A stretch of 64,000 nucleotides of DNA, from IMG/VR virus record IMGVR_UViG_3300047323_000477, positions 304 to 64,303 of that record. One strand, written 5' to 3'. The position numbers and the translations under genes were made by a program. Of this stretch, positions 42,521 through 49,758 are shown piece by piece. This DNA comes from a virus (Duplodnaviria > Caudoviricetes). The stretch's first letter is position 1. Each line of letters begins with the position of its first letter. The notes beneath the pieces were generated by a model that did no database searches, was not told the origin of the DNA, and was given only the letters and a program-made list of their open reading frames with translations.

Positions 42521-42628
42521 ACCACAGACTTCCCGGCCACGGCCGGGGTTGGGACCACGCCCTCTCCTCGTGGACGCACACCCCCAGGGGTGCAGCTGTC
42601 ACCGCCGTTTTCATGAGGAGAGGCAGTC

Positions 42629-43381
42629 GTGAACGACTTCCAGCCCTACTCCTACACGGACAGCGTCACCGCCGACCGGCCGTGGCTCGCGTCCCTGGTA
42701 GGAGTCCAGGACACCAACACCATCACCCTCGACCTGAGCAAGTTCGTCGCGGGCACCCACTACGTCGTCTCGGCGAACCCGCTGCTTCAGGGCCGCACGG
42801 TCATGAAGTCCGGCATCCCGCTCGGCAAGGTCGCCGCCTCTGGGCTGTACGCCCCTTACGGTGGCACGACCAGCGAGCTGCAGACCGTCACCGTCACCGG
42901 CACCCCGACGGGCGGCACGTACACGCTGACGTTCTCCGGGCAGACCACCGCAGGCATCCCGTTCAACGCCACCGCGGCACAGGTGAAGACGGCCCTCGAG
43001 GCCCTGTCGAACATCAACCCCGGTGACGTCGTCGTCGCAGGCGGCCCGCACCCGGGCACCGCAGTGACCGTGACGTTCTCCGGGCAGTACGCCGGCGACA
43101 ACGTCGCCCAGATGACCGCCTCCGGGGCCGGCCTCACCGGCGGAACCACCCCCGCCGTTGCCGTCGCCACCACCACCGCGGGCGGCACCGACCTGGCCAC
43201 CGACGGCACGCAGATCTTCGCAGGCTTCCTCGTCTCCGAGATCAGCTTCAACCCTGGCTCGACCAAGGCGGCCGGAGCCCTGCTGTGGCGCGGCGAAGTG
43301 TTCGCCTCCAAGCTCCCCGTTTCCTTCGACCCGGCCAACGTCACCGCGACGGCGCCCGGCGTCAGCGTCCACTACCGGTAA
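42629..43381 (+). CDS. Head decoration protein with inserted beta domain
   Basis: KSGIPLGK...GLYAPY and GFL...ALLWRG motifs; position before the capsid gene. Confidence 0.8.
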   Translation: MNDFQPYSYTDSVTADRPWLASLVGVQDTNTITLDLSKFVAGTHYVVSANPLLQGRTVMKSGIPLGKVAASGLYAPYGGTTSELQTVTVTGTPTGGTYTLTFSGQTTAGIPFNATAAQVKTALEALSNINPGDVVVAGGPHPGTAVTVTFSGQYAGDNVAQMTASGAGLTGGTTPAVAVATTTAGGTDLATDGTQIFAGFLVSEISFNPGSTKAAGALLWRGEVFASKLPVSFDPANVTATAPGVSVHYR

Positions 43382-43396
43382 GAGGAGGAGAACACC

Positions 43397-44449
43397 ATGG
43401 AGGCTCTTGAGCTCCTCCTGCGGGACACCAACGACACCGACATGACGGTGTTTGCCCGTTCGATGGACACCCCCGCGAACTACCGGCTCACCCAGGAAGT
43501 TCTGCCCGAGAAGCAGATCCAGGGAGTCCGGTTCCGCACCACGTCCGCGAAGCGACGCGTCAACGCCGCGAAGTTCCGCGCCTACGACGCCCCCACTGCC
43601 ATGGCGAAGCGCCAGGCCGAGCGCGTCGTGAACGAGGGCATGCTGCCCGCCCTGGGCCAGACCCTCCCCGTCTCCGAGATGGACCAGATCCTTCTCGACG
43701 TCGGCCACGGCCTGGACACCCAGCAGTACATCGACCTGCTGTACTCGGACGTCGAGCGGCATGTCGAGTCCATCAAGACCGCCCAGGAACTCGCCGCCGG
43801 CCAGCTCCTGGCCACCGGTTCGGTCAACCTTCCGGGCCTCGGCCTCGACGTCGACTGGAACGTTCCGGCGGCGAACATGCCGACCGCAGCGATCCTGTGG
43901 GACGACCCGGACGCCACCCCGCTGTCCGACGAGCGGGCGTGGATCGACTACCTGATCGACAGTGGGGCGCCCATGCCGCGCGAGGTCATCACCTCCCGCC
44001 GTGCGCGTGCCCTCCTCGCGTCGAACGCCGAGTACCGGGCCGCGTTCTACGGGTCCTCCACGGTCGGAGGAACGCCGACGGCGACGCTGAACCCCGACGA
44101 CGTCAACACCGTGCGCGCCCGCTACGGGCTCCCACCGATCGTCACCTACGACGTCCAGGTGTGGAACGACGACGTCTACCAGCGTGTCCTCCCGGACAAC
44201 AAGTGGATCATGATTCCGGATGTTCCGGCCTCCGAGTGGGCCCAGACCCAGTACGGGGTCACCCGCGAAGCCGCGAAGTTCACCTCCGGCACCAACCCGG
44301 CGCTCACCCGCGAAGAGGCCCCCGGCATCGTCGTCGTCTCCCACGTCGACGACAACCCGGTCCAGATCTACACCCGCGGCGCAGCGATCGGCATGCCCGT
44401 CCTGTACGTCCCGGACATCCACATCTCTGCGACCGTCCTCGGGGCGTGA
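43397..44449 (+). CDS. Major capsid protein (lambda gpE-like family)
   Basis: AAKFRAYDAP...E...TG...W...P..D...PVL; RBS GAGGAG. Confidence 0.9.
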   Translation: MEALELLLRDTNDTDMTVFARSMDTPANYRLTQEVLPEKQIQGVRFRTTSAKRRVNAAKFRAYDAPTAMAKRQAERVVNEGMLPALGQTLPVSEMDQILLDVGHGLDTQQYIDLLYSDVERHVESIKTAQELAAGQLLATGSVNLPGLGLDVDWNVPAANMPTAAILWDDPDATPLSDERAWIDYLIDSGAPMPREVITSRRARALLASNAEYRAAFYGSSTVGGTPTATLNPDDVNTVRARYGLPPIVTYDVQVWNDDVYQRVLPDNKWIMIPDVPASEWAQTQYGVTREAAKFTSGTNPALTREEAPGIVVVSHVDDNPVQIYTRGAAIGMPVLYVPDIHISATVLGA

Positions 44450-44454
44450 CCGCC

Positions 44455-44745
44455 ATGGCCAAGCTCAGCAAGGCCGTGTACGTCCGCGACCCGGACCGCC
44501 ACCGCACCGTCCTCCTCAAGCCGGGGGAGGAGCCGGAGCAGCGCCTCGCCGCTCTGGTCACCAACCCCGACTGCTGGGAGGACGGCAAGGTGCCGGCCGC
44601 ACAGGAAAGCGTCACCCGCAAGTCCGAGGACGTTGCCCCCGACAAGGGCGACGACACCGAGGACACCAAGCCGGCCGCCCGTAAGGCGGCCCGTAAGCCG
44701 GCCCGGGGCCGGACGACCGCCGCTGAGGGCACCGGCGGTCAGTAA
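44455..44745 (+). CDS. Small virion-associated protein
   Basis: Follows the capsid gene; VTNPDCWE motif; basic tail. Confidence 0.75.
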   Translation: MAKLSKAVYVRDPDRHRTVLLKPGEEPEQRLAALVTNPDCWEDGKVPAAQESVTRKSEDVAPDKGDDTEDTKPAARKAARKPARGRTTAAEGTGGQ

Positions 44746-44836
44746 GCGGAGTGTGGGCCCGACCCCCTGGTGGGGCGCCAGGCCGGGCCCACACCCGCCG
44801 TACCCCTTCCCACCCCACACAACTCCGGAGGACCTG

Positions 44837-45172
44837 GTGGACGCAGCCGTACGCGCCTGGCTCATCTCCCAGCTCGGCACCGACACAGACCTGCCGGACC
44901 TCGAGCAGCGGTACACCCGGCTCGGCACCGCCCGCGCGGTAGCGCTCGAGATCCTCCGCGAACGCCTGGCCGCGCTGCTCGCCGCACCCGGCACCGTGTC
45001 CGTCTCCGGTGTCGTGTCCGTGAACTTCTCCGCGAACATCGCCGCATACGAACGGCAGATCACCAACCTCGAGTCCGGGGAACCCACCGCACCGGATGAC
45101 CCCGACGTACCGGGCGAACTCGTCGGTGACGGCTTGGAGGTCGTGTACCTCGTGGAACGGCCCCGCCGATGA
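44837..45172 (+). CDS. Putative head-tail adaptor
   Basis: RBS GGAGG; size and position. Confidence 0.65.
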   Translation: MDAAVRAWLISQLGTDTDLPDLEQRYTRLGTARAVALEILRERLAALLAAPGTVSVSGVVSVNFSANIAAYERQITNLESGEPTAPDDPDVPGELVGDGLEVVYLVERPRR

Positions 45173-46005
45173 CCACCCCCACCCGGCGCCGCACCCTCCG
45201 CGCCCGCCTCATGGCGTTCATCGCCGACGCCACCAGCCGCATCACCGCCGCGTGGCGAATCCTCACCAACGCCCAGAACCGGCTCCTGGACGCCCTCGCC
45301 GTCATCCGGCCCGGCCGTAGCGCCTCGGTCCGGATCCGTGCCGCGCAGCAGGTGTTCCAGCGCAGCATCGCCGACTTCAACCGGGCCGTCGGAGCGTTCA
45401 CCGAACGGTGGGCCGCAACCGACCTGCCCCTCGCCTACCGCGAAGGCGCGTTCGGAATGCTCGACCGGGCCGACCGGCCACGACGCATGTGGTCCTGGAC
45501 CGCCCGCCACCAGAGCGCCATCACCACCCTGTCCTCCCAGTACTACGCCGACCTCATGGGCCGCCTGCAGGAAGCGGTCCGCCGCGCCCAGACGTTCCTC
45601 CGTGCCGCCGTGGACGCCGCCCGTGTGCGCACCAGCCGGTTCGAGTACGGGTCGTTCAACCGGGACACGCTGCGCGAAGAGCACCCGCTGGGCACGGTCA
45701 TCTACGCCAACGACGCCCGGCACCCCGTCGAGGCCTGGGCCAGTGCCGCCATTGCCTGGCAGGCCGTGACCACCGCCAACGCGGGCGCGGTCGCCACCGC
45801 CTACGAGCAGCTGCAGTGCACCCAGGTCAAGGTCCGCGACGGATCTGGGTGCGGGTGGCGGAATCACGGTGACGCCGACAAGGCCGACGGCACCATCCGC
45901 GACATCGACGACGCCCTTGCCCACCCCACAGCTCACGCCCGCTGTGTCAGGGAGTTCCTCCCGCACTTCGACCGCCCTGCTCTCCCCCTCGGCGGGCTTA
46001 CGTGA
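45169..46005 (+). CDS. Minor head morphogenesis protein (MuF-like C-terminus)
   Basis: VRDGSGCGW...ADG...HPTAHARCVREF motif. Confidence 0.72.
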   Translation: MTTPTRRRTLRARLMAFIADATSRITAAWRILTNAQNRLLDALAVIRPGRSASVRIRAAQQVFQRSIADFNRAVGAFTERWAATDLPLAYREGAFGMLDRADRPRRMWSWTARHQSAITTLSSQYYADLMGRLQEAVRRAQTFLRAAVDAARVRTSRFEYGSFNRDTLREEHPLGTVIYANDARHPVEAWASAAIAWQAVTTANAGAVATAYEQLQCTQVKVRDGSGCGWRNHGDADKADGTIRDIDDALAHPTAHARCVREFLPHFDRPALPLGGLT

Positions 46006-46817
46006 CCGTAATCGACTACGACCTCGCGTGCGGGTTCAGGAAGTCAGGATGCCTTGTGGAGATAGCGACGCTGGGAGGACGAGGGGTAACCGTCACGCCG
46101 AATCATTCGATTATGGCGAGGCGCGGTGGGATTGCTTCGAGCGAAATCCACGAAGGCGACGATGTAGTCGTCCGCGCCACGGAATCCGCTGCCGTATCTA
46201 CTGCAACGGACTTCGATCAGGTGCCAGCCCTGATTGAGGATGTATTCGCGGCGCTTGGGGAGGTTATTCCGAGCTTGCGTTCCGTATCCTCCGCCCAGGA
46301 CTTCCACGGCGACGGAGCCTTGCTCAATGGCAAGGTCGATGTTGTAGGGACCGACGGCCAGCTGGGGCGTCAAGACGAGGCCTTGGGCCGTCAACAAGGA
46401 TCCAAGCTCAGCCTCAAGGTGACTGGCCGAAGCAACGCGGGCTTGCCTCTCAAGGGCGCGCCGGGCGAGCAGGTCGTCCGACTCAACCTGTCCACGTCTG
46501 GCGGCGTGAGCGGCTTCGACGTGTGCCGGGTAGCTGGTTCCCTTCCTGATAGTGATCCCGCGCTCCTGGAGACGACTGCGCAAGGTGTTGTCGCAGATTC
46601 CGAATTCTTGCGAGAGGCTCCGTGCCGACTCCCCGTCAATGTATCGACGGACGATATCTTCAAGGTTCGGTATTTCCACTCGGCGACGGGACACGTGTAT
46701 GACCTTTCGACGTCAGAGGGGGCCTATTTCGCTAATGGAATTCTAGTGCATAATTGCGTGCGAGAGTTCCTCCCTGCCCCCGAACGCCAGGACCAGAATG
46801 TGGGAGTGAATTCATGA
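46002..46817 (+). other. Orphan, N-terminally truncated intein (Hint) ORF followed by a duplicated C-extein
   Basis: Block B VTVTPNH; block F HVYDLST; block G NGILVHN-C; then CVREFLP, as in the upstream gene; no block A. Confidence 0.85.
46044..46694 (-). CDS. HTH plus DUF559/Vsr-like endonuclease encoded antisense inside the intein
   Basis: IVRRYIDGESARSLSQEFGICDNTLRSRL HTH; SHLE...Q..VGPYNIDLA...VAVEV.G...YILNQGW; RBS GAAAGG before GTG. Confidence 0.85.
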   Translation of the reverse strand: MSRRRVEIPNLEDIVRRYIDGESARSLSQEFGICDNTLRSRLQERGITIRKGTSYPAHVEAAHAARRGQVESDDLLARRALERQARVASASHLEAELGSLLTAQGLVLTPQLAVGPYNIDLAIEQGSVAVEVLGGGYGTQARNNLPKRREYILNQGWHLIEVRCSRYGSGFRGADDYIVAFVDFARSNPTAPRHNRMIRRDGYPSSSQRRYLHKAS

Positions 46818-47194
46818 CCGCCCCGAGCATGGCCGACCAGCCGCACCAGATCCGCCTCACCTCCAACGGCCTGTCCGGCACCGTGGAAGTGGACGGCGCC
46901 GATATCAGCGCGCAGGTGCAGGGCTACAACCTCGAGGCCCGCGTCGGTACCGCGCCGCTCCTGGTGCTGTACGCCAGCCCCCGTGAGGGCGGTGTTGCCT
47001 TCGAAGGCCTTGCGCACGTCGCGATCGGCACCGAGCAGGACCCCGGCCCGTCGATCGCCGCGTTCCTCGCCAGCATGGACCCGGCCTCCCTCCAGCAGGC
47101 AGCCCTGAACCGCGACGACCTCGAGAACAACAAGTACGGGGTCACCCGGGCGATCCTGGCGCAGCTCGCCGACTGGGCGCAGGGGAAAGCCTGA
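46814..47194 (+). CDS. Hypothetical virion-operon protein
   Basis: RBS GGGAG; ATGA coupling. Confidence 0.75.
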   Translation: MTAPSMADQPHQIRLTSNGLSGTVEVDGADISAQVQGYNLEARVGTAPLLVLYASPREGGVAFEGLAHVAIGTEQDPGPSIAAFLASMDPASLQQAALNRDDLENNKYGVTRAILAQLADWAQGKA

Positions 47195-47652
47195 TGGCCG
47201 GCCTCGACCAGGCGCTCGCCGGCGTCACGCGGTGGATCGGGAACTATCTCCTGATCGACACCGTGCGCATCACCCTGCCCGCCACCGGCGAGCCCGTCCT
47301 GAACACGGGGACCGGGCAGCTCGAGTACCCGGAGGGCGACGTGCTGTACGAGGGCCCCGGCGCGGTGGTCCCGTCCAGCGGCACCACGGAACGGGCAGCG
47401 ATCCAGGATGCTGTCCAGCCGTGGACGCAGCAGGCCAAGCTCTCCTACTTCCTCCTGACCCCTCTGACGGCACCTGTCCCGCCGGAGAACGCGGTGGCGT
47501 CCGTGGTCGGTGTCCACGACCCCGCCCGCACCGCGCTCATCGGCCGGACGTGGACGTGCGCCGGGCCGGGCATGGCCAGCACCGTCGAAGTCGTCCGCAA
47601 GACCCCGCTCGACCAGAACACGCTGCCATCGGACGCAGGCGGTGCGCCGTGA
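47194..47652 (+). CDS. Head closure protein (DUF6093-like)
   Basis: LIDTVRIT...TG...VLYEGPG; position. Confidence 0.72.
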   Translation: MAGLDQALAGVTRWIGNYLLIDTVRITLPATGEPVLNTGTGQLEYPEGDVLYEGPGAVVPSSGTTERAAIQDAVQPWTQQAKLSYFLLTPLTAPVPPENAVASVVGVHDPARTALIGRTWTCAGPGMASTVEVVRKTPLDQNTLPSDAGGAP

Positions 47653-48038
47653 CCCCTGACGAACTCGCCGACCGGCTCGAGCACGCCGCCGACCACATCG
47701 GCGATGCCATCGCCCGCAGGGTCGTACACACCGCCGAGATCGGCCGCGGAATGATCCGGGCCAACGCCAGCGGCCGCCCCGGGCCCAACGTCATCACCGG
47801 GAAGTACCGGGCGTCATGGGAGGTTGCCAGCCGCACCATCCCGTACGGCGCCCAGTGCACCATCGGCACGAACGCACCGCAGGGCCGACGCCTCGAGTTC
47901 GGATTCTGGGACATGACCGACAGCATCGGCCGGCATTTCTACCAGCCGCCGTACCCGCACGTCGGGCCCGCGATCCCGCGCATGGAGGCGGAGCTGCGGC
48001 AGCAGATGCTGGCCGCCGTATCGGAGGTCCTGTCGTGA
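47649..48038 (+). CDS. HK97 gp10-like tail completion protein
   Basis: SGRPGPNVITGKYRASW...RLEFG...QPPYPH..PA. Confidence 0.82.
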   Translation: MTPDELADRLEHAADHIGDAIARRVVHTAEIGRGMIRANASGRPGPNVITGKYRASWEVASRTIPYGAQCTIGTNAPQGRRLEFGFWDMTDSIGRHFYQPPYPHVGPAIPRMEAELRQQMLAAVSEVLS

Positions 48039-48484
48039 TTGAACGCCTGCCCGTCACGATGGCGCTGTCCGCTCTACTCACGTCGGCCACCGGCATTGCG
48101 GTCGGCCGCGGAAGCAAGCCGCCGAACATCACCCCGCCGTACTACCTGCTGCACGCCATGCCCGCCGCATACAGCGGGGCACCGTTCAGCGACCTCAACG
48201 AGGACTCGAGCCTCGTCTACCAGGTGACGTCCGTGTCTGGACCCGACCCCGTAAAGCCCGACTCTCACGGGGTGGCGGACCAGGCTGAGTGGATGGCCGA
48301 CAAGGCCCGCACCGCGATCCTCGGCCGCGACCCGGCAACCAAGCTGTGGCTCCACGAACTGTCCATCCCTGGCGTCAGGGTGATCGGGCGGAGCCTCGAC
48401 ACCGAACCGGGGGGAACGTCTGATCAATCCGATGCCATCATGAGCTATGTGCAGAGGTTCAGGTTCGACCTGACCTCAACCTGA
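48035..48484 (+). CDS. Tail terminator protein
   Basis: PPYYLL...YQVTSV...QAEWMAD; position before the tail tube gene. Confidence 0.75.
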   Translation: MIERLPVTMALSALLTSATGIAVGRGSKPPNITPPYYLLHAMPAAYSGAPFSDLNEDSSLVYQVTSVSGPDPVKPDSHGVADQAEWMADKARTAILGRDPATKLWLHELSIPGVRVIGRSLDTEPGGTSDQSDAIMSYVQRFRFDLTST

Positions 48485-48617
48485 CCCTGGTCAGGCTTTA
48501 CCGCACCGCGGCGGGACCCCACGCGGACGCCACCGACGCAGGTGGCCGCACCCACACACCACGTGTAAGGGGCCGGGTCCGCACCGCCGGATCGCCCCGG
48601 GACAAGGGGCCCATCCC

Positions 48618-49097
48618 ATGCCGGTCAAGAAGTACATGCGGCGCGGAACGTCGAAGTTCTACTTCCTCGAGACGATCGTCGCCACCACCATGATCCCCAG
48701 CCGTACCGAGCTCACCGCCGGCACGGAGTTCTCCGAGTTCATTGCCGCGATGGACGGCTGGACCGTTCAGAACAACGAGATCGAGACGCCGAACATGGCG
48801 GACACCTACGACTCGACGATCCCCGGCAGCGACAAGGCGGACACGTCGACGTTCACGTTCTACGAGGACGAGGTCGAGTCCGACATCGAGGAGATGCTCG
48901 CCAAGGGCACCGTCGGCTACGTCGTCATCCTCCGTAAGGGTGACGTCCCGACGAACAAGAGCATGGACGTGTTCCCGATCCGTGTTGCCTCCCAGTCGCC
49001 GCAGTACACGGCGGACAACGAGGCCGCGAAGTTCGTCGTGACGTGCTCCATCACCTCCCGGCCGGTCCAGGGCGCCGCGGTACCCGCCGCGACCTGA
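48618..49097 (+). CDS. Major tail (tube) protein
   Basis: PSRTELTAGT...GW...IPG; position. Confidence 0.88.
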   Translation: MPVKKYMRRGTSKFYFLETIVATTMIPSRTELTAGTEFSEFIAAMDGWTVQNNEIETPNMADTYDSTIPGSDKADTSTFTFYEDEVESDIEEMLAKGTVGYVVILRKGDVPTNKSMDVFPIRVASQSPQYTADNEAAKFVVTCSITSRPVQGAAVPAAT

Positions 49098-49197
49098 TCT
49101 GCCCCTCTCAGCTCCCGGCCGGGCCCGAGCAGTGTTCGGGAAGGGGCGCCGCACGGCGCCCGGCCGGGCCCCCTTCCCCTGACGGAGGACCCACCTC

Positions 49198-49758
49198 ATG
49201 ACCACCGCACGAAAGACCGCCGCACCCAAGCCGCCCACCGCCGCGATCGATGCCGACGCGCACTGGGCGGCCACCCGGGAGCGGCTCCTCAACCGCACCC
49301 GGCCCACGGTCCGCCTCACGATCTGCGACGACCACGACGCCAAGGAAGCCCTCACCGAAGCGCGATTCGTGGAACAGAGGGCACGCGAAGCAGCCGAACG
49401 GGACCCCAAGAACGAAGCCGCCCAGGCCGTTCTCCGCACCGCCACGGCCAGCCTCACCAAGGCGCAGGCCGCCTTCGACAAGGCGTCGATCGAGCTGCGC
49501 TTCCAGGCGTTGGACCGCAAGACATACAAGGAGCTCCTGGCCGCACACCCGCCGACCGAGGACCAGGCCGAGGACGGCTACGCCTTCAACGTCGACACCC
49601 TGGCGCCCGTCATCATCGCCGCGTCGTCGTTGGACGGCATCACCGAAGAGGACGCCGCACAGTTCCTCGACGACTGGGCGCAGGCCGAAGCCGAAGCTCT
49701 CCTGAACACCGCATTCGGGGTGCAGCGCGAAGAGCGCATGGACCTGGGAAAAGGCTGA
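49198..49758 (+). CDS. Tail assembly chaperone (gpG-like)
   Basis: FQAL...Y..LLAAHPPT; ends in a slippery site. Confidence 0.85.
   Translation: MTTARKTAAPKPPTAAIDADAHWAATRERLLNRTRPTVRLTICDDHDAKEALTEARFVEQRAREAAERDPKNEAAQAVLRTATASLTKAQAAFDKASIELRFQALDRKTYKELLAAHPPTEDQAEDGYAFNVDTLAPVIIAASSLDGITEEDAAQFLDDWAQAEAEALLNTAFGVQREERMDLGKG
49746..49752 (+). other. -1 programmed ribosomal frameshift site G GGA AAA
   Basis: X XXY YYZ heptamer just before the stop; the -1 frame is open to 50120. Confidence 0.85.

Follow-up and report, generated by a model that had tools for sequence, protein, structure and literature searches.

Positions 46044-46694 of the window, the 64,000-nucleotide (nt) stretch of a viral contig from a metagenome analyzed here (IMG/VR record IMGVR_UViG_3300047323_000477, estimated to be 71% complete), are open on both strands, with Hint (intein) motifs in the plus-strand frame and an endonuclease-like product encoded on the minus strand. 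Which of the two frames does selection follow, and is the intein around the nuclease gene still an intein? The initial annotation read the locus as an intein with its homing nuclease expressed separately, from an antisense gene. We found this layout in a family of phage inteins, and we found the window copy itself to be truncated and rearranged. The best explanation, to which we assign a probability of about 0.6, is that the window holds a product of illegitimate recombination in which the intein-borne nuclease gene is intact and now effectively free-standing beside an intein-free gene for a MuF-like protein. The nearest named relative of the window is Streptomyces phage ZL12, with ~74% nucleotide identity across the flanking genes.

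A Vsr-like nuclease gene antisense to an intein frame

The minus-strand open reading frame (ORF; 46044..46694) runs from a GTG start over 216 amino acids (aa) to a TGA stop and has the makeup of a homing endonuclease gene. Its residues 2-50 (46545-46691, minus strand) form a helix-turn-helix (HTH) part, and residues 88-206 (46077-46433, minus strand) form a Vsr/DUF559-like core. The AlphaFold2 model has a mean predicted local distance difference test score (pLDDT) of 88.1 and a predicted template modeling score of 0.69. In structure comparisons, the core matched Vsr 1cw0_A (Z 11.5, root mean square deviation [rmsd] 2.4, 111 aligned residues), DUF559-like 3hrl (Z 11.0), the catalytic domain of I-Bth0305I (3r3p_A; Z 10.7, rmsd 2.2, 94 aligned residues), and 1vsr (Z 10.4), while residues 2-50 matched HTH DNA-binding domains at Z 5.3-5.4. 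A Foldseek search with the same model gave no match at E ≤ 0.001; the same Vsr-like entries ranked at the top, at E 5e-3 or weaker, with probabilities from 0.89 (3hrl) to 1.00. A profile built from the nuclease family matched 3hrl at E 7.5e-6 and 3r3p at E 0.005, and the Pfam search returned MTES_1575 (E 8e-7), several weak HTH families, and DUF559 (E 0.17). Among 942 candidates, 26 protein relatives were found at E ≤ 1e-3; the best of them (P0003) is 64% identical, and several carry the source name "very-short-patch-repair endonuclease." Six residues (G115, Y117, N118, D120, A129, and E131) are invariant in all 24 aligned nucleases. With fold, profile, and relatives in agreement, the HTH plus DUF559/Vsr-like nuclease proposed by the initial annotation was borne out: as judged from sequence and model, the minus-strand ORF is a genuine gene of this kind, with a predicted homing function.

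The start signals of this gene are written into the intein frame. A putative Shine-Dalgarno-like GAAAGG (46703..46708, minus strand), as read from the letters, lies 8 nt upstream of the GTG. A ribosome-binding site of this sequence had been proposed for the nuclease gene in the initial annotation, as the reverse complement of the VYDL codons; on the plus strand, its six letters belong to the D-L-S codons of block F. The start codon is the complement of the block F His codon, CAC giving GTG in the window and CAT giving ATG in three viral loci with in-frame inteins (L004-L006). In these loci and in the window, a TCA codon for the Ser at intein residue 23 lies opposite the stop codon. No intrinsic terminator was found in 45800-47100.

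The antisense layout was then surveyed from both sides. In a Hint-first search, viral loci were retrieved by two patterns lying outside the overlap, N-H-P-V-L-T-x-R-G and G-I-L-V-H-N-C-x-R; the best 80 of 235 were used, and with L003 and the window they made a set of 82. An uninterrupted, full-length antisense nuclease match was present in all 82 (E 1e-34 to 1e-100), so that the ORF is conserved among homologous inteins. The Hint-frame ORF reaches at least 515 aa in 79 of these loci and is cut by contig ends in L025 and L027; the window is the only locus of the 82 with a short Hint-frame ORF that is not due to a contig end. A nuclease-first search retrieved 73 loci, 44 viral (3 of them the same contigs as L004-L006) and 29 metagenomic, and an intein hidden Markov model (HMM) matched the opposite strand in 43/44 and 29/29, respectively (72/73). 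Within the metagenome loci, the intein match is full length in 22, is cut by contig or locus ends in L128, L141, L147, L148, and L151, and ends uncut at model position 248 in L135. Thus, the separate antisense nuclease gene inside an intein, as the initial annotation had it, holds at the level of the family, where it takes the place of an endonuclease domain in frame, whereas the window copy is not an intact intein.

The members share conserved terminal residues and one insertion site. In a set of 109 non-identical inteins, 102 begin with Cys and 107 end in Asn, and Cys is the +1 residue in 107. The insertion site in these inteins is H-x-x↓C-(R/D/Q/H)-C (arrow, insertion point), the conserved C-terminal motif of MuF-like proteins. 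In a Hint search of 1.84 billion representatives, 4511 proteins passed E ≤ 1e-3, and 2355 of these also passed E ≤ 1e-10. Among the 150 Hint matches listed, 79 align in one stretch over query residues ~15-255, in proteins of 234 to ~1900 residues, and the shortest of these, at 234 residues, is the window's own. Of 10 Hint relatives searched against Pfam, 2 matched minor capsid protein 2 (1 over the gathering score), 2 matched Phage_portal (1 with a weak Phage_Mu_F match), 1 matched Portal_Mu with a weak Phage_Mu_F match, and 5 matched only the intein family. By tblastn, the nuclease was found in 106 GenBank phage records (Salmonella, 62; Gordonia, 15; Pseudomonas, 15; and others), mostly from phages of Proteobacteria; among the matches listed, the features annotated beneath it are MuF, head morphogenesis, structural, or hypothetical proteins.

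Selection was examined in the two frames separately. The plus-strand ORF (46002..46817; 271 aa, 314 aa from stop to stop) and the minus-strand ORF confirm that both strands are open over 651 bp, and over 46044-46694 the two frames lie in exact codon-on-codon antisense. In this register, codon position 1 of the Hint frame is position 3 of the nuclease frame, and each TTA, CTA, or TCA codon of one frame reads as a stop in the other. Codon positions were compared in 25 related, blastn-preselected pairs, which remained from 44 pairs after removal of 15 at 100% identity and of the redundant L007/L010, L016/L038, L038/L051, and L038/L065, which have identical cores; the pairs share lineages and are not independent. 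Inside the overlap, pooled differences per site at Hint-frame positions 1/2/3 were.377/.167/.279, compared to.316/.278/.474 outside it. Position 1 exceeded position 3 in 24 of the 25 pairs inside the overlap, and position 3 exceeded position 1 in all 25 outside. Moreover, identity in the nuclease frame equaled or exceeded that in the Hint frame in 25/25 pairs and was higher in 23, and the mean BLOSUM score was higher in the nuclease frame in 25/25. Substitutions therefore follow the codon phase of the nuclease, with a purifying pattern that tracks this frame, and the central part of the Hint frame is no more than the nuclease gene's antisense shadow.

The Hint frame is nonetheless kept open. 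In 72 non-identical cores (GC 0.42-0.71), the nuclease frame contains 0 TTA/CTA/TCA codons against 315 expected, and the Hint frame contains 0 against 472, the expectation being a simple third-position model over loci that are not independent. In contrast, a free-standing 328-aa homologue (L124) has 17 such codons, that is, 17 stops in its antisense frame. Since the antisense frame is full of stops in this free-standing relative, the comparison shows, at the level of codon usage, that the stop-free Hint frame of the embedded copies is maintained by selection. The window nuclease likewise has 0 TTA/CTA/TCA codons against 6.2 predicted (P(0) ~7e-4, with A at 16% as in third positions of other four-fold families). 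The overlap is also less GC-rich than its surroundings, as first noticed from the sequence: GC is 0.59-0.64, compared to ~0.70-0.72 in the neighbors, and GC at third codon positions (GC3) is 0.65-0.68, compared to 0.90 in neighboring genes.

One short segment may be an exception. At 46077-46110, nuclease residues ~193-202 (consensus R-x-Y-R-V-I-R-G-x-G) are the exact antisense of the block B residues T-P-N-H-P-V-L-T, and free-standing L124 retains Y-K-V-I-W-G at this C-terminal strand. Block B and the C-terminal strand of the nuclease may thus be constrained in both frames, rather than one being the shadow of the other.

Truncation of the window intein and the probable recombination junction

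Upstream of the overlap lies the gene that would be expected to carry the intein, and it is complete without one. This gene for a MuF-like minor capsid or head-morphogenesis protein (45169..46005, plus strand; 278 aa) is 71% identical to pZL12.60c of ZL12 and matches phrog_37388 at E 6e-95. It ends in AHAR-CVREFLPHFDRP.. before its stop, in the same style as ZL12, with the H-x-x↓C intein site of its relatives intact. The gene is homologous to the N-exteins of L004-L006 and of P0030, in which the intein sits in frame in the layout ..H-P-N↓C-V-V-E-G-T-E-V-E-A...H-N↓C-V-R-Q-F-L-P...

In the window, alignment with the L004-L006 inteins places the Hint remnant at 46026..46754 (plus strand); it begins at intein residue 17 and ends with the terminal His-Asn. 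The remnant retains block B (TPNH; 46095-46106, plus strand, residues 32-35 of the 271-aa ORF) and blocks F/G (GHVYDL...GILVHN; 46689-46754, plus strand), which the +1 Cys follows, but it has neither block A nor Cys1, since intein residues 1-16 (C-V-V-E-G-T... in the family) are gone. The Hint motifs that the initial annotation placed at both ends thus hold for F/G at the C-terminal end and for block B, but not for block A and Cys1. In the alignment at both DNA and protein levels, window codons GCG TGC GGG TTC AGG AAG TCA GGA (A-C-G-F-R-K-S-G) correspond to intein residues 17-24 of L004-L006. The intein HMM finds no counterpart in the window for its positions 1-5, and its positions 6-16 align with residues that come from an exonuclease gene. 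These three lines, the L004-L006 alignment, the DNA junction, and the HMM match lacking the model start, carry the conclusion that the window intein is truncated. The start of the Pfam match does not: Intein_splicing matches the plus-strand ORF from profile position 45 (45-155), and full-length relatives start at 37-48, which voids this position as a sign of truncation. That match (E 2e-7) scores 31.4 bits compared to a gathering cutoff of 35.8, which 5 of 10 full-length Hint relatives pass. The Cys in ..KSGCLVE.. was considered as Cys1 and rejected, as it aligns with a non-conserved position of the full-length relatives. L149:1129-2399, considered as a second internal truncation, was also rejected; a single frameshift hits both frames there, in a contig of ~3x coverage.

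The two frames of the window differ in how well they are preserved. Taking as family-conserved any column kept in at least 85% of 75 non-identical loci, the Hint frame has changed 5 of 24 columns (family median, 2; maximum, 6). All five lie beside block B, where P, V, L, T, and W have become S, I, M, A, and G. The nuclease keeps 22 of 23 columns (1 changed; family median, 1) and shares 61-63% identity with the nucleases of the L004-L006 inteins. The AlphaFold2 model of the plus-strand ORF has a mean pLDDT of 40.1, with residues 61-212 under 50 and no Pfam family there, which agrees with the featureless middle described earlier; the inputs of the two models differ in depth, at 11 alignment rows for the Hint ORF and 24 for the nuclease. 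Lacking both a nucleophile at position 1 and a real N-extein, the Hint remnant cannot, on its predicted residues, splice. It is probably still translated by coupling to the MuF-like gene. Annotation of the 271-aa ORF as an intein-containing protein should be avoided.

What replaced the N-terminal end of the intein is the start of another gene. The sequence (M)TVIDYDL (46002..46025, plus strand), 8 codons plus a GTG start that overlaps the TGA with which the MuF-like gene ends, is the remnant of an RNase H-like gene: pZL12.59c of ZL12 begins MTAIHYDL, and the gene downstream in L005 reads ..CIDYDLEFLEDG. pZL12.59c matches phrog_2259 "Rnase H," and an RNase H-like exonuclease gene fills this slot in ZL12 and L005. 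No other copy of it was found in the window's contig, at its estimated 71% completeness. At the junction, ..TAC GAC CTC is followed by GCG TGC; GACCTC, the last 6 nt of the remnant, is a microhomology, and the join falls in GA(C/G)CT(C/T), 5-6 nt common to both partners. Codon 8-9 of the RNase H-like gene is thereby joined to intein residue 17. The nuclease ORF is intact, the junction lying 18 nt beyond its stop.

At the other end of the remnant is a second, diverged copy of the MuF C-extein (46755..46817, plus strand), which reads CVREFLPAPERQDQNVGVNS plus a stop and begins with the +1 Cys. This duplicate (C-V-R-E-F-L-P-A-P-E..) has CVREFLP in common with the true C-terminus at 45943-46005, from which it departs after residue 7 and at synonymous sites. 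The stop of the duplicate shares letters with the ATG of the gene that follows in the virion module (46814..47194, plus strand; 126 aa); that gene is 63% identical to pZL12.58c of ZL12 and forms the right border of the cassette.

The arrangement recurs in independent data. A 2021-nt contig from sequencing run X2, from another sample and study, covers 45300-46775, i.e., the end of the MuF-like gene, the junction, and the whole nuclease gene, with 18 differences, all in 45843-45881, and 0 across the cassette. Because this independent contig spans it, the junction is not an assembly artifact. Another run, X1, may be the source of the window DNA.

Two side observations concern the same stretch. 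The 18 differences of the X2 contig cluster within 39 nt of the MuF-like gene, at a distance of ~60-100 nt upstream from the intein site, and the 1476-nt match is otherwise identical; such a cluster resembles a short patch of gene conversion or mosaicism close to where the endonuclease would presumably cut. In run X4, one low-depth contig joins 45597 to 46813 via 412 other letters instead of 1215. This may be an empty-site allele, the length fitting a diverged MuF 3' end that lacks both the cassette and the RNase H-like gene; the evidence is weak, with flanking matches of 49 and 30 letters at 90% likeness.

Origin and standing of the detached nuclease gene

Taken together, these results fit the following course of events. 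In the intact family, a class-1 intein sits at the H-x-x↓C(R)C site of phage MuF/minor-capsid proteins, and its Hint frame need only stay open across the codon-on-codon antisense nuclease gene. By analogy with established homing endonucleases, and given the tie to a single insertion site in 109 inteins, the nuclease would cut intein-less MuF alleles of co-infecting phages, and repair would then copy intein and nuclease together. At the window locus, an illegitimate crossover at the 5-6 nt microhomology would have fused codon 8-9 of the RNase H-like gene to intein residue 17. Both the splice junction and the RNase H-like gene would have been lost, and the MuF-like gene, free of an intein, would have ended up beside a whole nuclease gene. 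The chimeric Hint ORF would have been left translationally coupled, with block B eroding. The gene, its fold, its family, the selection pattern, the truncation, and the junction are observed; cleavage, homing, present activity, and the order of events at the window locus are what we infer from them. That the nuclease may be active is argued for by the conserved residues it keeps. Flank identities, compared with a two-parent origin in view, pointed to no donor and did not separate one crossover from a two-ended replacement.

Several findings weigh against the best explanation. The Pfam scores of the nuclease are under the curated cutoffs (MTES_1575, 29.5 compared to 38.2 bits; DUF559, 12.2 compared to 20.6). 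The near-invariant Tyr195 is replaced by Asn in the window nuclease alone, and the W-H that follows V-A-V-E-V-x-G-G in most relatives is Y-G in the window's subfamily; given these two changes, the enzyme could be weakened. The initial annotation saw nuclease expression as possibly decoupled from late-gene timing; a search of 45800-47100 turned up no sigma-70-like promoter. On either side, the flank is closest to that of ZL12, at 71% and 63%, compared to 60-63% and 40-45% for L004-L006. The absence of TTA, CTA, and TCA codons from the window nuclease is codon usage of the embedded type, which would imply either that detachment is recent or that the Hint frame is still kept open for another reason. 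Finally, L124 is the only clean free-standing relative among the 73 nuclease-retrieved loci.

L124 also shows what a longer separation might look like. At L124:1189-2668, the homologue comprises two HTH-like parts and a Vsr-like core and is convergent with an intein-free MuF gene (Phage_Mu_F, E 1e-20), which it overlaps by 14 nt at the MuF 3' end. That MuF gene ends ..H-P-N-C-R-C.., and no Hint ends are left at the L124 locus. Free-standing phage homing endonucleases act on a neighboring gene in what is called "intronless homing," as for the Seg and Mob enzymes of T4. Like these, the nuclease lies between conserved genes beside its presumed target, where spread by co-conversion would be expected, and both L124 and the window would fit this pattern. 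The window gene differs in that it still lies within recognizable Hint sequence, so that its intein origin is visible. A tentative extension of the recombination reading, which we regard as possible rather than probable, is that the nuclease was shed from the intein, in an event that restored or preserved a MuF gene without intein and replaced the RNase H-like neighbor, and is still spreading by co-conversion beside its target, L124 being the end state of the same route. If so, the window would be an observed intermediate linking intein-encoded and free-standing phage endonucleases, in a direction opposite to the model in which a free-standing gene invades an intein.

The rearrangement could instead have killed the whole element, leaving a decaying relic whose nuclease ORF is intact only through recency. 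The lack of TTA/CTA/TCA codons where 6.2 are expected, compared to 17 in L124, would point to little time since detachment; the loss of Tyr195, the absent W-H, and the lack of a sigma-70-like promoter are consistent with decay. However, the nuclease has kept 22/23 conserved columns and all six invariant residues while the Hint frame lost 5/24, and the junction spares the whole nuclease ORF by only 18 nt. In addition, the same arrangement, with 0 cassette differences, is present in a second sample, and L124 shows that the nuclease family persists without an intein. We therefore consider a dead relic unlikely.

An intact, splicing-competent intein with a separately expressed antisense homing nuclease at the window locus, the initial reading, would account for blocks B, F, and G, the terminal His-Asn, the +1 Cys, and the open frame, and the architecture is real in relatives. 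It is very improbable here: residues 1-16 with Cys1 are gone, an unrelated gene supplies the 8-9 codons of the "N-extein," the MuF-like host gene is complete upstream without an intein, and block B has lost five near-invariant residues. Least credible of all is an artifact, a chance open frame or a chimeric assembly at the junction, since, although the window is GC-rich with many long antisense ORFs that are spurious and the contig is metagenomic, the confident Vsr-like fold, the independent relatives, selection following the nuclease frame, and an independent contig from another sample spanning the junction all stand against it.

With illegitimate recombination as the preferred reading, the window copy indicates that the nuclease gene is separable from a working intein and yet kept whole, and that such cassettes can displace neighboring phage genes.

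Known systems and further members of the family

The initial annotation knew of no well-described precedent for an antisense nuclease in an intein, and here it was mistaken. In a 2025 preprint, Gosselin, Arsenault, and Gogarten (bioRxiv 10.1101/2025.01.02.630785) describe an anti-sense VSR-like homing endonuclease (HEN) in full inteins of actinobacteriophages (PhagesDB), hosted by minor capsid (IPR006528), terminase, polymerase, and ThyX genes. The in-frame middle is unfolded, the antisense product matches Vsr 1CW0 at Z 10.6, and HHpred links it to 3R3P. The authors propose that free-standing endonucleases invaded inteins, call the layout rare, and cite anti-sense LAGLIDADG inteins (Gorbalenya 1998; Gogarten et al. 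2002). Our family agrees with theirs in the opposite-strand Vsr-like nuclease within Hint, the unfolded middle, and the link to I-Bth0305I and the EDxHD group, with Z 11.5 here compared to 10.6 there. Unlike their full inteins, the window copy lacks residues 1-16, is detached, is fused to the remnant of another gene, and has a duplicate C-extein. The layout that the preprint terms rare was present in 82/82 and 72/73 of the loci retrieved here, and the nuclease in 106 GenBank phage records. A literature search on anti-sense endonucleases in minor-capsid inteins found only this preprint, and no truncated, detached copy appeared in the literature searched, although the supplementary tables of the preprint may list closer or decayed forms. 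Dual-coding architecture is thus already known, and what is new here is modest: a rearranged, truncated, and detached copy. The anti-sense LAGLIDADG inteins, as the preprint presents them, also have the endonuclease gene opposite the intein strand, but with another nuclease family and other hosts (dnaX, SpoVR-like, and Gordonia-phage minor capsid genes).

Two further systems resemble the locus in part. In the "fractured genes" of Dassa et al. 2009 (PMC2677866), split inteins have a free-standing Vsr-like or GIY-YIG endonuclease gene between their halves. Like the window family, they place a free-standing Vsr-like gene where an intein would have its endonuclease domain, mainly in phage-like DNA, and they have prompted the same idea of an endonuclease invading an intein. 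In fractured genes, however, the endonuclease gene has the same orientation and splits the host gene, which is restored by trans-splicing, whereas in the window family it is antisense and Hint reads through; the window, moreover, has no splicing partner. I-Bth0305I, presented by Taylor et al. 2011 (PMC3239194) as the prototype of EDxHD homing endonucleases, likewise combines a Vsr-like catalytic fold with an added DNA-binding part, as the window nuclease does. It is encoded in a group I intron and has only 15% identity to the window nuclease over the aligned core.

The antisense nuclease gene appears unannotated in the GenBank records, for example in those of Gordonia phages Angelicage and Vivi2, and also outside actinophages. 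Gene calling should include the 216-aa minus-strand gene, which seems to have been overlooked in at least 106 phage records of GenBank. By comparison, the many ORFs of 100-600 aa opposite virion genes in 42611-49529 of the window are typical chance open frames at GC3 ~0.9 and are unlike the nuclease ORF.

Several relatives depart from the family layout. L110:637-2457 and L117:671-2383 hold an intein with an antisense nuclease, with short N-terminal flanks and other C-exteins (H-N↓C-V-W-A-G.. and H-N↓C-Q-F-D..). Their host protein is possibly not MuF, the Pfam matches being to the intein domain only. Three of the 10 full-length relatives (P0036, P0046, and P0047) have Ala in place of Cys at intein position 1, after H-P-N, which, going by this residue, would imply a different splicing chemistry or a loss of N-terminal cleavage. 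In L150:1303-3117, the intein HMM match is full length, but the open part of the nuclease frame starts only at model position 71; this may be a decaying nuclease inside an intact intein.

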